Positions 23,660-40,524 of a stretch of DNA of 40,524 nucleotides are shown here, in pieces. Under the pieces are notes generated by a model. It was given only the letters and a program-made list of their open reading frames with translations, ran no database searches and had not been told where the DNA came from. The translations under genes were made by a program, and so were the position numbers. Position 1 is the first letter of the stretch, and the number at the start of each line of letters is the position of its first letter. Source of the DNA: a virus (Duplodnaviria > Heunggongvirae > Uroviricota > Caudoviricetes); IMG/VR virus record IMGVR_UViG_2627853794_000002, positions 1 through 40,524 of that record; one strand, 5' to 3'.

Positions 23660-23875
23660 TTACTCTCCCCGTGCAGCCTTACGCTTGTCTTCTCTGATTT
23701 TGAAGTACAGATTTGTCAGATAAGTCAGGAAGCCCAGAACCAGACTCCCCAGTACACCAATCGCAGCCCACTGTGACGGACTGACCTGATCAAGCCACTG
23801 TAAAAACCAGTAGCCAGCACTGCCTGCGGAGGTGCCGTAGGCAATGCCCGTTGAAATTTTGTCCATGGATTTCAT
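23660..23875 (-). CDS. Pinholin (phage 21 S21-like) with dual-start motif MKSM
   Basis: 71 aa; [59 protein letters not shown]... matches S21 as recalled. Confidence 0.85.
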
Positions 23876-24035: not shown

Positions 24036-24108
24036 TTATGAATGATCGCCTGCCCGAAGGTTAGTATTTCTGCACAGCAATTTTGCAAAAAAAGGCGATC
24101 ATTCATAA
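24036..24108. repeat. Perfect 15-bp inverted repeat with 43-bp spacer
   Basis: ttatgaatgatcgcc (24036-24050) and ggcgatcattcataa (24094-24108). Confidence 0.6.
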
Positions 24109-24115
24109 CTTAAAC

Positions 24116-24161
24116 GTCTTTCAGTCACTCCGGGATTTCCCATCATCGCAGACTGAAAGAC
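24116..24161. repeat. 11-bp inverted repeat hairpin just downstream of tRNA array
   Basis: gtctttcagtc (24116-24126) and gactgaaagac (24151-24161), 24-nt spacer, 6 nt from tRNA-Gly 3' end. Confidence 0.5.
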
Positions 24162-24167
24162 TCTAAC

Positions 24168-24242
<75 letters not shown>

Positions 24243-24245
24243 ATA

Positions 24246-24321
<76 letters not shown>

Positions 24322-24323
24322 AC

Positions 24324-24400
24324 TGGACCGCCACCGGGGACTCGAACCTCGCACACTCAACTTAAAGGGTTGACGCTCTTTCCTGATGAGCTAGTGGCGG
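24324..24400 (-). tRNA. Atypical tRNA, anticodon UUU (Lys?) with C33
   Basis: 77 nt; perfect 7-bp acceptor stem CCGCCAC/GTGGCGG, anticodon stem TCAAC/GTTGA, loop CCUUUAA, T-loop TTCGAGT with one A-C mismatch in T stem; CCA encoded. Confidence 0.55.
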
Positions 24401-24401
24401 C

Positions 24402-24477
24402 TGGTGGCCCTTGCTGGATTTGAACCAGCGACCTGGCGATTATGAGTCGCTCGCTCTCACCACTGAGCTAAAGGGCC
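24402..24477 (-). tRNA. tRNA with anticodon CAU, most similar to tRNA-Ile2 (ileX/ileY-like) rather than elongator Met
   Basis: 76 nt; loop CUCAUAA; acceptor GGCCCTT/AAGGGCC; CCA encoded. Confidence 0.75.
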
Positions 24478-24580
24478 GGGCGCAGGATAATAACGTTACG
24501 AAATCAATGTTGCAAGCATTCAAAAATCCCCCTTATCTCCTCCACCAGCGCATTCACCATGTCTATCCGAGATAAGTGGC

Positions 24581-24606
24581 ACAAAAAACCCGCTTGTGGG
24601 CGGGTT
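24581..24606 (-). terminator. Intrinsic terminator (tR'-like) between late promoter and tRNA array
   Basis: Minus strand: stem aacccgc/gcgggtt followed by TTTTTTG. Confidence 0.55.
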
Positions 24607-24659
24607 TTGTTTGCTTTTGCCATCACGTACAAAATCGGCAAAATATCAGATTTGCATGA

Positions 24660-24688
24660 AATATATGCCTTTCAATCTACTTTTGCAA
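24660..24688 (-). promoter_or_regulatory. Candidate late promoter (pR'-like), sigma70 type
   Basis: Minus strand TTGCAA - 17 nt - TATATT overlapping 3' end of Q-like gene; ~50 nt upstream of terminator. Confidence 0.4.
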
Positions 24689-25361
24689 CACTTTGCTTTG
24701 AAAATGCCACCTTTTGTTTTGAACGTGTTCTCATTACAAACAATAAAGCCTCACTATCAAGTCGGTGAAAAATGTGTTTCATTGCAACCCAGTGACGAGT
24801 AAATGTTTTGGACCAGTTTTTAGTTGTCACTCCCGCCAGTAATGCCAGCTCCTGGTATTCATAACCTTCCCCACCAAAAAGTTCTGCTTTTACTGCCTGC
24901 GCCGCCAGCCAGATTAATTTTTTCAGGCGTTCCTGCGTTTTCCCTGCAATTTTTCTGGTACCGGATTGAGTATTAAATTCATTCCACGCCCACTGTGTTA
25001 TCGCGATCTGATATTCCCAACAAATACTCCCGCTGTAACACCACAACAACCAGGCTTTATGATGTTCTTCAAGAGACAGAACTGCCCGTCGCCATGATGA
25101 TGTCGAAAACTCAACCTGACTTACCAGAGCAATTGATGAGCCTTTCGCCAGTGATTGTTTTCCCGGTATCGGTGGACTATCCCGCGTTATCATTCTTCCA
25201 GTCACTTCATCGCGGTACCGGATTTTTTTACGCCTGTAACGCCCTGTATCAAACATGGCATTCTCCTGCCAGGCTTCAAGCTGGCCTTTCGTTGCTCCGC
25301 TCAAATCAGCGGTAGCCACAATGAGTTGCTCGCGGACATACTGTAAATATTGGGTATTCAT
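24672..25361 (-). CDS. Putative late-gene antiterminator (Q-like by position); family not recognised
   Basis: 229 aa; located between rusA and late promoter/terminator/lysis genes as Q is in lambdoid phages; no recognisable zinc finger. Confidence 0.4.
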   Translation of the reverse strand: MNTQYLQYVREQLIVATADLSGATKGQLEAWQENAMFDTGRYRRKKIRYRDEVTGRMITRDSPPIPGKQSLAKGSSIALVSQVEFSTSSWRRAVLSLEEHHKAWLLWCYSGSICWEYQIAITQWAWNEFNTQSGTRKIAGKTQERLKKLIWLAAQAVKAELFGGEGYEYQELALLAGVTTKNWSKTFTRHWVAMKHIFHRLDSEALLFVMRTRSKQKVAFSKQSVAKVD

Positions 25362-37704: not shown

Positions 37705-38026
37705 GGCCTGTCAGTTTCTCAAGATATCCAGACCTACCGCTACCAACTGGATACGAACAGGCCGCCTACAGGCAACACGCAAAGACCCCACTAAACCAAA
37801 ATCTCCTTACCTCACAACGCGACAAGCCTGCATTGCGGCGCTTCAGTCTCCGCTGCATACTATCAAGGTGAGCGCGGGTGATGGCATAACAGAGGAAAGA
37901 AAATGTCACTCTTCCGCAGAAGTGAAATATGGTACGCCAGTTTCACATTGCCGAACGGTAAAAGATTTAAACAGTCTCTTGGAACAAAGGACAAAAGGCA
38001 GGCGACAGAGCTCCATGACAAGCTAA
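37676..38026 (+). CDS. xis: Excisionase-like HTH protein (AlpA/Xis family); 3' end overlaps int
   Basis: [33 protein letters not shown]... HTH; ORF runs 124 nt into int in another frame, true C-terminus uncertain. Confidence 0.5.
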
Positions 38027-39066
38027 AGGCTGAAGCATGGCGGGTCAGCAAACTTGGTGAAATACCTGATATGACGTTTGAGGAAGCGTGTGTCAGGTGG
38101 CTCGAAGAGAAAGCACATAAGAAATCACTGGACGATGACAAAAGCCGGATCGGATTCTGGCTTCAACATTTCGCAGGGATGCAACTAAGAGACATCACTG
38201 AATCAAAAATTTATTCAGCGATGCAGAAAATGACAAACCGGCGTCATGAGGAAAACTGGAAACTCAGGGCAGAAGCATGCAGAAAAAAAGGGAAACCTGT
38301 TCCAGAATACACGCCAAAACCAGCGTCCGTTGCAACGAAGGCTACGCATCTTTCATTTATAAAGGCCCTGCTAAGAGCCGCAGAGCGTGAATGGAAAATG
38401 CTGGATAAGGCACCAATTATTAAAGTGCCTCAACCAAAGAATAAACGGATCCGCTGGCTGGAGCCCCATGAAGCACAAAGGCTGATTGATGAATGTCCGG
38501 AGCCATTAAAGTCTGTTGTTGAATTTGCACTGGCAACAGGCTTAAGACGCTCGAACATCATCAACCTTGAATGGCAACAAATAGATATGCAGCGCCGGGT
38601 GGCATGGATAAACCCGGAAGAGAGTAAATCAAACCGCGCAATTGGCGTTGCGCTGAATGATACTGCATGTCGCGTATTGAAAAAACAAATCGGGAATCAT
38701 CACCGTTGGGTATTTGTGTACAAGGAAAGCTGTACCAAACCAGACGGAACGAAAGCGCCAACAGTAAGGAAGATGCGGTATGACGCAAACACAGCCTGGA
38801 AAGCGGCGCTGAGACGGGCTGGTATTGATGATTTCAGATTTCACGACTTGAGACACACCTGGGCAAGTTGGCTGGTTCAAGCCGGAGTCCCGTTGTCAGT
38901 GTTACAGGAAATGGGGGGTTGGGAGTCTATCGAAATGGTTCGTCGATATGCTCACCTTGCACCTAATCACCTTACCGAACACGCACGGCAAATAGACTCG
39001 ATCCTGAATCCATCGGTCCCAAATTTGTCCCAGTCAAAAAATAAGGAAGGTACTAATGATGTGTAA
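37903..39066 (+). CDS. int: Tyrosine integrase (lambdoid prophage integrase)
   Basis: 387 aa; N-terminal [14 protein letters not shown]...; catalytic region ...[39 protein letters not shown]; stop 14 nt from tRNA 3' end. Confidence 0.9.
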
Positions 39067-39080
39067 CTTATTGATTTAAA

Positions 39081-39156
39081 TGGTGCCGATAATAGGAGTC
39101 GAACCTACGACCTTCGCATTACGAATGCGCTGCTCTACCAACTGAGCTATATCGGC
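39081..39156 (-). tRNA. thrW: tRNA-Thr (anticodon CGU), intact; prophage attachment site
   Basis: 76 nt; minus strand GCCGATATAGCTCAGTTGGTAGAGCAGCGCATTCGTAATGCGAAGGTCGTAGGTTCGACTCCTATTATCGGCACCA; adjacent to proA as in E. coli. Confidence 0.9.
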
Positions 39157-39270: not shown

Positions 39271-40524
39271 TTACGCACGAATGGTGTAATCACCAATGCC
39301 GATCCACTTGTAAGTGGTCAGTGCTTCCAGCCCCATTGGGCCACGCGCGTGGAGTTTTTGTGTGCTTACCGCCACTTCCGCACCCAGTCCAAACTGGCCG
39401 CCGTCGGTAAAACGCGTAGAGGCGTTAACGTAAACAGCGGACGAATCCACTTCGTTAACAAAACGCTGGGCGTTGCGCATATCGCGGGTCAGGATCGCAT
39501 CGGAGTGTTGTGTGCCGTGTTCACGAATATGGGCGATGGCATCGTCAAGATCGCTGACGATTTTGACGTTCAAATCTAATGACAGAAACTCATCGTCATA
39601 CTCTTCAGCTTTAACCGCCACCACCTTCGCAGGGCCTGCCTGCAACTGTGTCAGCGCAGCTGCATCTGCGTGTAATGTCACGCCGCTTTCCGCCATTTGT
39701 TTGCTTAATGCGGGCAGGAAGCTATCGGCGATGTTTTTATTCACCAGCAACGTTTCTACCGTATTACATGTGCTCGGACGCTGAGTTTTCGCGTTGACGA
39801 TCACTTTTAATGCTTCAGCGATCTCTGCACTTTCATCAACGTAAATATGGCATACGCCTATACCACCAGTGATCACCGGGATCGTCGACTGTTCACGGCA
39901 CAGTTTATGCAAACCAGCGCCACCACGCGGGATCAGCATGTCGATGTATTTATCCATACGCAGCATTTCACTGACCAGCGCACGGTCAGGATTATCAATC
40001 GCCTGCACGGCACCCGCCGGTAAGCCACAGGATTTCAGGGCGTCCTGAATCACCGCTACCGTTGCCGCGTTAGTGCGACAGGTTTCTTTGCCACCACGCA
40101 GGATCACCGCATTACCGGTTTTCAGGCACAGCGAAGCGACATCAACCGTCACGTTCGGGCGCGCTTCATAAATCACGCCAATAACCCCCAGCGGTACGCG
40201 ACGACGCTCAAGACGCAGGCCGCTGTCCAGTACGCCGCCATCGATTACCTGCCCCACCGGATCGGCGAGGTTACACACCTGGCGTACATCGTCGGCAATG
40301 CCTTTCAGCCGTGCGGGCGTCAGTGCCAGACGGTCAAGCATCGCTTCGCTAAGGCCATTGGCTCGCGCGTCAGCAACATCCTGGGCGTTAGCGTTGAGGA
40401 TGATTTCGCTTTGTGCTTCCAGTTCATCGGCGATTTTTTCCAGCACGCGATTTTTTTCGCGGCTGGAGAGTTGCGCTAATTTATACGAGGCTTGCTTCGC
40501 GGCAATGCCCATTTGTTCCAGCAT
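39271..40524 (-). CDS. proA: Gamma-glutamyl phosphate reductase
   Basis: 417 aa, full length; aldehyde dehydrogenase-type fold; matches E. coli ProA as recalled. Confidence 0.95.

Follow-up and report, generated by a model that had tools for sequence, protein, structure and literature searches.

A UUU-anticodon tRNA with C33, of argN type, in the late-region tRNA array of a lambdoid Escherichia coli prophage

The stretch of DNA analysed here (the window; all 40,524 nucleotides (nt) of IMG/VR virus record IMGVR_UViG_2627853794_000002) carries a lambdoid, that is lambda-like, Escherichia coli prophage, and its minus strand encodes at positions 24324-24400 a tRNA with anticodon UUU, which we label X. 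X is a genuine tRNA gene with cytosine at position 33. It occupies the second place of an Ile2-X-Thr-Gly array, which is flanked by Q/tR' on one side and by the holin gene on the other. Sequence comparisons place it in the argN family of lambdoid phages and not among copies of host genes, and they indicate that the anticodon of an arginine tRNA was remoulded from UCU to UUU, with U33C as a further change. X is annotated in RefSeq and its family is a known phage family, but it is a variant with a switched anticodon and C33; the literature searched gave no description of the origin of X or of its C33, and searches on C33 in phage tRNAs and on ileZ/argN yielded nothing relevant. As to function, the account that we favour, and to which we give an even probability, is that X is a dispensable, weak lysine decoder that may help when the host tRNA-Lys is attacked.

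The tRNA gene and its relatives

The elements of X to which we refer are the following.

24324..24400, minus strand: tRNA X, 77 nt, argN-type, anticodon UUU, C33, encoded CCA (ARAGORN, Rfam, and the Prokaryotic Genome Annotation Pipeline (PGAP) on identical E. coli copies)
24362..24368, minus strand: anticodon loop CCUUUAA (sequence and Infernal alignment)
24357..24373, minus strand: anticodon arm UCAAC-CCUUUAA-GUUGA, with G39 U40 U41 and no CNG triplet on either strand
24337..24349, minus strand: T-arm core with the mismatch A51·C63, non-canonical according to Infernal (A51 at 24349, C63 at 24337)

On the minus strand, within the late-region array of the prophage, ARAGORN called a tRNA-Lys(ttt) whose ends are exactly 24324 and 24400. 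This is the interval in which the initial annotation had seen a UUU tRNA of a phage tRNA array, leaving the strand unstated. Rfam model RF00005 matched at 24327-24400 (model positions 1-71) with 44.4 bits and E=2.2e-6 when the whole window was searched, which is above its curated gathering threshold of 29 bits. All five tRNAs of the window matched this model, the others with 64.9-73.8 bits. In addition, PGAP labels identical E. coli copies of X as tRNA-Lys, without a pseudogene flag.

The cloverleaf of X has stems of 7, 4, 5 and 5 bp. Both the acceptor stem (CCGCCAC/GUGGCGG, 7/7) and the anticodon stem (UCAAC/GUUGA, 5/5) are perfectly paired, the D stem is GCUC/GAGC, and the T stem (CGAGG/CCCCG), which closes the T loop UUCGAGU, holds the sole non-standard pair, A51·C63. 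Indeed, the 77-nt cloverleaf with its two perfect stems, the loop with C33, the T loop and the A-C mismatch are all present as initially described. The loop residues are C32 C33 U34 U35 U36 A37 A38, with C33 at 24367 (G on the plus strand), the anticodon at 24364-24366 and A37 at 24363. The discriminator is U73 (24327), followed by an encoded CCA (24326-24324). The near-invariant residues U8, A14, G18 G19, purine 37, G53 U54 U55 C56, A58 and C61 are all kept, and the only invariant residue lost is U33, the U-turn nucleotide. A G directly 5' of C1, also pointed out in the initial annotation, is present (24401), but it is no signal because this base varies among the closest relatives (A in 40, G in 26). 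Minimum-free-energy folding was uninformative as a test of X: the cloverleaf reached -22.3 kcal/mol against an optimum of -25.0 (z=-1.46), and the cloverleaf of the neighbouring Ile2 was likewise non-optimal.

X is only 51.9% identical to lysT of E. coli K-12, which is the general level between tRNAs and no sign of homology to the host lys genes. The initial statement that X does not match the host tRNA-Lys is thus correct. In contrast, identity was 84.4% to argN (anticodon UCG) of Shiga toxin (Stx) phages, 87.0% to the Arg(UCU) allele of L240/L242, 89.6% to the Arg(UCU) allele of CFT073 and 90.9% to the Lys(UUU) allele of L123/L130, which has the canonical U33, loop CUUUUAU and a perfect T stem. 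The pair C1-G72 is common to X and all these relatives, and U73 to most of them. Furthermore, X has all the idiosyncrasies of the argN family, namely C1-G72, U73, the D loop AUCRGGAWA and the T loop UUCGAGU, and also its position, directly after an ileZ-type tRNA and between Q/tR' and the late genes; its anticodon is UUU and not an arginine anticodon (UCG or UCU) of the family. Judging from these sequence features, X belongs to the argN family of lambdoid phages and was not copied from a host gene. The initial proposal of a phage-specific tRNA is thereby borne out and can be refined to a tRNA-Arg family with the anticodon change UCU to UUU.

The closest established system is argN of the ileZ-argN-argO array of 933W type. 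Like X, Stx argN is the second tRNA after an identical ileZ-type tRNA, lies between Q/tR' and late genes, and has C1-G72, U73, A51·C63 and the T loop UUCGAGU; its Rfam score of 43.0 bits is close to the 44.4 bits of X. The two differ in anticodon (UCG in Stx argN, UUU in X) and at position 33 (U and C), they show compensatory differences at 27-43 and 30-40, and the pair 7-66 is U·G in Stx argN and C-G in X. Downstream of argN in Stx phages lie argO and stx, whereas the tRNAs that come after X are the Thr and Gly tRNAs derived from the host.

The origin of the anticodon can be read from the L240/L242 Arg(UCU) allele, whose anticodon stem is identical to that of X and whose loop, CUUCUAA, differs only at positions 33 and 35. 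The anticodon arm of X thus equals this arm plus two transitions, C35U and U33C, and we conclude that the anticodon was remoulded from Arg UCU to Lys UUU. We aligned 52 distinct 77-nt alleles of the X slot, in which counts refer to sequences and not to events. Pairing was found in 96.1% of cells, as compared with 28.7-53.2% when the partners were slid. Double changes occurred at 7-66 (U-A/C-G), 27-43 (C-G/U-A), 30-40 (G-C/A-U), 4-69 and 51-63, with a G30·U40 intermediate in CFT073. The pair 51-63 is A·C also in Stx argN, G-C in L123 and A-U in CFT073 and L242. On this alignment, the pairing and the double changes show that constraint of the tRNA type acted on the lineage from which X descends.

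In such arrays, a UUU anticodon has also arisen a second time, independently of X. A thrU-derived tRNA with the anticodon changed from UGU to UUU, labelled tRNA-Lys by PGAP, is present in 7 IMG/VR contigs and in the genome of an enterotoxigenic E. coli (ETEC) O6:H16 (L125 1280-1355; L236-L242, for example L242 4835-4910). Two of these contigs carry a good Arg(UCU) allele in the slot of X.

Position 33 in phage tRNAs and the alleles of X

To our knowledge, C33 is nearly absent from cellular elongator tRNAs. We scanned all of IMG/VR for CCTTTAA followed by GGTTCRAATCC at tRNA spacing, a pattern that excludes the E. coli family, which has another T loop. Among 102 matches, 31 were tRNA-Lys(UUU) according to ARAGORN with the loop exactly in register. 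These represent 23 distinct sequences, no two of which are at least 85% identical. Like X they have the loop CCUUUAA and the anticodon UUU; unlike X they have other backbones (at most 64% identical to X), A73 wherever the 3' end is readable, Rfam scores of up to 70 bits (42.6-70.1 bits in the 13 checked with Infernal) and, mostly, a place in large phage tRNA sets, where they are usually the sole Lys(UUU) and often stand beside a normal Lys(CUU). As a control, the transition A37G was sought in IMG/VR and yielded only 2 such tRNAs.

A broader scan for C32-C33-N-N-U36-A37-A38, which covered at least 120 contigs, returned Met(CAU), Asn, Ile, Arg(UCU), Thr and Lys tRNAs. Based on ARAGORN calls, position 33 was U in 474, C in 19, G in 2 and A in 1 of the 496 phage tRNAs other than those that had prompted retrieval of the contig, and position 37 was a pyrimidine 9 times. 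These data demonstrate that C33 is a recurrent minority state of phage tRNAs, accounting for about 4% of those sampled. Hence the oddity on which the initial annotation had centred is real, but it is one that phage tRNAs show repeatedly, and since it recurs in unrelated, well-scoring phage tRNAs, C33 alone is no evidence for a pseudogene. The idea that C33 is a signature specific to lysine tRNAs or to tRNAs carrying N6-threonylcarbamoyladenosine at position 37 (t6A37) was rejected, since it occurs in several isoacceptors and was found in 8/183 tRNAs with U36 and 21/336 others (p=0.43). Among C33 tRNAs (loci L247-L503, for example L265 327-401 and L270 700-772), Met(CAU) with the loop CCCAUAA was especially frequent. 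Bacterial ANN-decoding tRNAs, on the other hand, are reported to be without C33 (PMC8887486).

The argN-type family was found in species-representative genomes of E. coli and Shigella flexneri only. In 5,426 complete E. coli genomes we counted the records with an exact copy of each of four alleles.

Window allele (intact cloverleaf, C33): 278 records, PGAP tRNA-Lys
U4/C8/U11 haplotype (C33): 165 records, PGAP no call
delta-U12/U70 haplotype (C33): 222 records, PGAP no call
U33 Lys allele (L123 type): 13 records, PGAP tRNA-Lys

Copies at least 95% identical to X, which form the C33 clade, occurred in 750 records (~14% of complete E. coli genomes). The window allele is the commonest single allele, both in these records (278) and in IMG/VR and GenBank arrays (68/222), and CCUUUAA is the commonest loop in the 222 ileZ-anchored arrays, a sample inflated by one scan anchored on the T arm of X. 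In addition, two isolated phages, vB_EcoM-606R7 and vB_EcoS-689R5, carry the window allele, although their records leave it unannotated, and PhiR47_1 has a near-identical one that differs at two positions. Both lesioned haplotypes score below the Rfam threshold, and U4/C8/U11 has lost U8; ARAGORN and the PPompW records call such alleles tRNA-Lys, whereas PGAP and Infernal do not. The PPompW prophages that carry delta-U12 have been described as defective (PMC8112680). When we asked whether lesioned alleles are confined to defective prophages, the U4/C8/U11 (U8C) haplotype was seen in a prophage remnant and also, in 7/17 loci, beside intact Q and lysozyme genes.

ARAGORN found 140 distinct tRNAs in the related loci. 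The 17 without U33 were all C33-clade alleles and the other 123 all had U33, from which it follows that C33 arose once, never reverted and is unique within these arrays. UUU and A37 were kept in 17/17 distinct clade alleles, with no reversion of C33, and the IMG/VR search revealed no U33 revertant in the window backbone, but only the separate L123/L130 allele, in one contig. Polymorphism was compared in 94 arrays of four tRNAs, where part of X (the T arm) is fixed by the search pattern. Polymorphic sites numbered 18/58 unascertained nt in X, 19/76 in Ile2, 16/76 in Thr and 11/75 in Gly, and a variant gene was present in 12 arrays for the ileZ-type tRNA, 34 for X, 30 for Thr and 34 for Gly.

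Several slots held grossly altered genes. Anticodon-arm deletions were seen in the alleles L090, L136, L183 and L190. A common 80-nt allele of the argN slot (L135 2726-2805 and some 22 further loci) retains the acceptor and D arm, but has its anticodon arm replaced (GACGACACGAUAACAGGGUUGUUG) and a broken T loop, GCGGGU; it is recognised by neither ARAGORN nor Rfam. In L142 (3 loci), a deletion between argN and argO has apparently fused the 5' half of the former to the 3' half of the latter, giving a chimeric tRNA.

Such alleles raise the question of whether X itself is a decaying relic, crippled by U33C after the anticodon change and degenerating slowly as a neutral hitchhiker beside a useful ileZ-type tRNA. 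We regard this as the most serious rival, though a clearly less probable one than a weak lysine decoder. It would account for the excess of lesioned over intact alleles (387 against 278 records), the former being unrecognised by Infernal and PGAP, for the anticodon-arm deletions and the aberrant 80-nt versions that fill the X slot, and for the low covariance-model score and T-stem mismatch of X itself. It would also agree with the block that C33 imposes on t6A37 formation in vitro (PMC8887486) and with the stronger conservation of the ileZ-type neighbour, which varies in 12/94 arrays as compared with 34/94 for X. However, the host-identical Thr and Gly tRNAs vary as often as X, Stx argN scores equally low despite its U33, and no fewer than 23 independent, high-scoring Lys(UUU) tRNAs of phages have C33, which argues that it is not inactivating in itself. 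Moreover, the intact allele is still the commonest single one and is carried by isolated phages, and none of the 17 distinct clade alleles has reverted or lost UUU/A37.

Lysine decoding and tRNA-cutting defences

The favoured reading, that X is a weak and dispensable lysine decoder, implies a series of steps; expression, charging, decoding and nuclease resistance of X are what we infer here, from its sequence and setting. An argN-family tRNA would have had its anticodon remoulded from Arg UCU to Lys UUU and acquired U33C. Lying downstream of Q, pR' and tR', X would be transcribed as part of the late transcript, and a conserved promoter-like site before the array may be a further source. RNase P and 3' trimming would free the tRNA, with CCA already encoded. 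The main determinants of lysyl-tRNA synthetase (LysRS) are U35 and also U34 and U36, all of which are present in X, so that charging with lysine through the UUU anticodon is likely. The discriminator of E. coli tRNA-Lys is A73 and that of X is U73, a difference that should make LysRS less efficient on X than on the host tRNA-Lys. X would then serve as a second-rate decoder of AAA/AAG under weak selection, and its selective value would be that of a spare lysine tRNA that survives tRNA-cutting defences.

Bacteria cleave tRNAs against phages by means of PrrC, PARIS, retron-Eco7 and OLD, and the host tRNA-Lys(UUU) is a prime target. This tRNA is cut by PrrC and the PARIS nuclease AriB, and less by P2 OLD (PMC12409363, PMC12445682, PMC13191261). 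AriB cuts it at U36AAUC|A41, and U39A, A41C and U16C each abolish or impair cleavage (PMC12409363); X has G39, U40, U41 and C16 where U39, A41 and U16 are needed. OLD requires a paired CNG in the anticodon stem (PMC12445682), and that of X contains none. Because its anticodon arm derives from an arginine tRNA, X is without the determinants by which AriB and P2 OLD recognise the host tRNA-Lys. PrrC cuts 5' of U34 and is stimulated by 5-methylaminomethyl-2-thiouridine at position 34 (mnm5s2U34) and by t6A37 (PMC13191261). C33 lies at the PrrC scissile bond, between 33 and 34, and it is an anti-determinant of the E. coli enzyme TsaBCDE, which does not modify U33C tRNA (PMC8887486); X is therefore expected to be without t6A37. 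C33 would thus alter the nucleotide at the scissile bond and should also block the modification that aids cleavage. Together these features predict that X would be a poor substrate for AriB, for P2 OLD and perhaps for PrrC.

Several observations weigh against this reading. X has a low score (44.4 bits), an A·C pair in the T stem and U73 where lysine tRNAs have A73. To judge from studies of the lysine anticodon stem-loop, loss of t6A37 and of the U33 turn should weaken decoding of AAA/AAG by X. Two phage GenBank records with the identical sequence (ON470580.1, ON470583.1) leave X unannotated. More than half of the C33-clade copies in E. coli carry extra D-arm lesions (U4/C8/U11, delta-U12/U70), and such common lesioned alleles point to weak or no selection on the fold; the polymorphism of X in the 94 arrays is not lower than that of its neighbours, there being no clear excess or deficit. 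Supply of codons was rejected as the main role of X. The late genes contain 32 AAA and 19 AAG per 1000 codons, and K-12 has six lys tRNA genes, five of which we saw. Since lysine codons are not rare and K-12 has several lys genes, there is no need for X in codon supply; in the late genes, lysine codons are common and unremarkable. Finally, the array's Thr(UGU) tRNA does not differ from its host counterpart, a target of AriB and OLD, and extra host ThrU gives little protection against P2 OLD (PMC12445682). For these reasons the array as a whole is no obvious anti-defence kit.

A bolder version is conceivable, in which prophages recruited an Arg-tRNA body with UUU as a defence-proof lysine tRNA, such that late proteins are made despite destruction of tRNA-Lys, and in which C33 is a recurrent signature of counter-defence. 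We consider this unlikely, and less probable than the relic.

We think it improbable that X has a role other than decoding, be it as a decoy or competitive inhibitor of a tRNA-targeting nuclease or as punctuation for processing of the late transcript. Competitive inhibition of AriB by viral tRNAs made in excess is suggested as a possibility in the study of that nuclease (PMC12409363), but X is without the AriB-binding determinants of the host tRNA-Lys and would make a poor decoy. Punctuation would fit tRNAs that lie 1-3 nt apart and need RNase P cuts. The anticodon arm is nearly constant in the C33 clade while the D arm and acceptor are variable; the difference between arms is, however, not significant, and the T arm is fixed by the search pattern. 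No precedent for a non-decoding role was shown for the argN-type family.

Still less probable, indeed very improbable, is a tRNA charged with arginine or another amino acid that inserts a wrong residue at AAA/AAG. The argN-family backbone with A20, and U73 in place of the Lys-type A73, would favour such a tRNA, and the sister alleles Stx argN (L002 1501-1577) and delta-U12 (L232 1501-1576) have G3·U70, the identity pair of alanyl-tRNA synthetase. X, however, has G3-C70. Arginyl-tRNA synthetase (ArgRS) needs C35, with the loss of which its recognition of X should have been lost as well, and under general identity rules X offers LysRS its main determinant, U35. In addition, misincorporation at an abundant codon would be toxic.

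Altered decoding, which the initial annotation had left open and in which the U-turn is displaced one base by C33 and U35-U36-A37 is presented to read UAA, or X promotes frameshifting, is the least probable reading and close to dismissal: it is a formal possibility only, with U34 taking over the U-turn role, X allows no alternative stem or loop register, the slippery heptamer AAAAAAG occurs 16 times in the window but 0 times in the tail-chaperone region, and the C33 tRNAs of unrelated phages, often the only Lys(UUU) beside a normal Lys(CUU), fit ordinary lysine decoding.

The array, its prophage and known systems

The genes and sites around X are listed below.

24402..24477, minus strand: ileZ-type tRNA(CAU), PGAP tRNA-Ile, the gene that opens the array, lying 1 nt upstream of X and matching Stx-phage ileZ in full (ARAGORN, Rfam, PGAP)
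24246..24321, minus strand: tRNA-Thr(UGU), 100% identical to K-12 thrU (ARAGORN, Rfam)
24168..24242, minus strand: tRNA-Gly(UCC), 100% identical to K-12 glyT (ARAGORN, Rfam)
39081-39156: thrW-type tRNA-Thr(CGU), the fifth tRNA of the window (ARAGORN, Rfam)
24672..25361, minus strand: antiterminator Q gene, 229 amino acids, upstream of the array
23660..23875, minus strand: class II holin gene, the first late gene downstream of the array
24487..24515, minus strand: promoter-like site TTGCAA-17-TATTAT, ending ~10 nt before the first tRNA, a possible array promoter
24660-24688, minus strand: late-promoter-like site
24583-24656, minus strand: short leader with sub-threshold similarity to isrK/isrJ
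24579-24614, minus strand: tR'-like hairpin and U-run

The tRNAs of the array are packed 1-3 nt apart. The hexamers TTGCAA and TATTAT are invariant among the 94 related arrays, in a flank that is otherwise highly polymorphic, and transcription of the array may on this basis be independent of Q antitermination. The prophage is sited at thrW beside proA, and Gam, Bet and Exo are among its products. In a close relative of it the lysis module is a different one, without tRNAs, and Ile2-X-Thr-Gly is also found in an unrelated prophage of siphovirus type, which indicates that the array travels with a mosaic Q-lysis module.

Some further observations concern this setting. The integrase gene abuts the thrW-type Thr(CGU) tRNA beside proA (37903-39156, 39271-40524), marking the prophage end and attachment site, and the homologues of Gam, Bet and Exo lie at about 34.6-36.4 kb of the window; P2 OLD is triggered by Gam. 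Between the host-identical Thr and Gly tRNAs (24168-24321) there is a 3-nt spacer, without the tyrU that parts them in the chromosome, and the pair has the look of host genes captured after processing or by recombination. The interval from the last tRNA to the holin gene contains two perfect inverted repeats, one at 24036-24108 with arms of 16 nt spaced 41 nt apart and followed by a minus-strand T-run, the other at 24116-24161 with arms of 11 nt spaced 24 nt apart; to judge from their sequence, these repeats 3' of the array could represent a terminator or else a small RNA. The position of the inverted repeats is taken in related loci by copies of STnc100, and in L136 by AgvB. The possibility that a prophage tRNA serves as attachment site for other prophages was rejected, since the bacterial attachment (attB) sites of PPompW are elsewhere and the tRNA goes unmentioned (PMC8112680).

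Should X prove functional and insensitive to the nucleases, it would be the first example in a temperate phage of a remoulded spare lysine tRNA, and the existing assays for PARIS and PrrC make X directly testable. If it is only a decaying relic, X would still document anticodon switching and rapid turnover in prophage tRNA arrays. C33, which occurs in a few percent of the tRNAs of phages and in no fewer than 23 independent Lys(UUU) lineages among them, merits a proper census. Annotation of the C33 clade is inconsistent: PGAP labels the intact allele tRNA-Lys but passes over the lesioned ones, and the gene is left out of some phage records.

Among known systems, the eukaryotic initiator tRNA-Met is a natural and functional tRNA that has C33 in common with X. 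It differs as a P-site initiator of eukaryotes with the anticodon CAU. The block of t6A37 formation by C33 applies to the bacterial and the yeast enzymes alike (PMC8887486). Phage tRNAs with substitutions in the anticodon loop have been proposed to evade anticodon nucleases (PMC10264068). Like X, these have the anticodon of the nuclease target and a substitution next to the PrrC cleavage site; that study, however, does not describe C33 and treats the Lys(UUU) tRNAs of coliphages as an exception, rescued by tRNA ligases, whereas X is a prophage gene. Finally, phage T5's own tRNA-Lys(UUU), which neutralises PARIS (PMC11464382, PMC12409363), is phage-encoded like X and differs from the host tRNA at the same AriB positions 39, 41 and 16, with A39, C41 and C16 in T5 and G39, U41 and C16 in X. 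The T5 tRNA has U33 and a Lys-type body, belongs to a virulent phage and has had its resistance and rescue demonstrated experimentally. X, in contrast, has an Arg-family body, resides in a temperate phage and is known here from its sequence; the two share no homology beyond general tRNA features.

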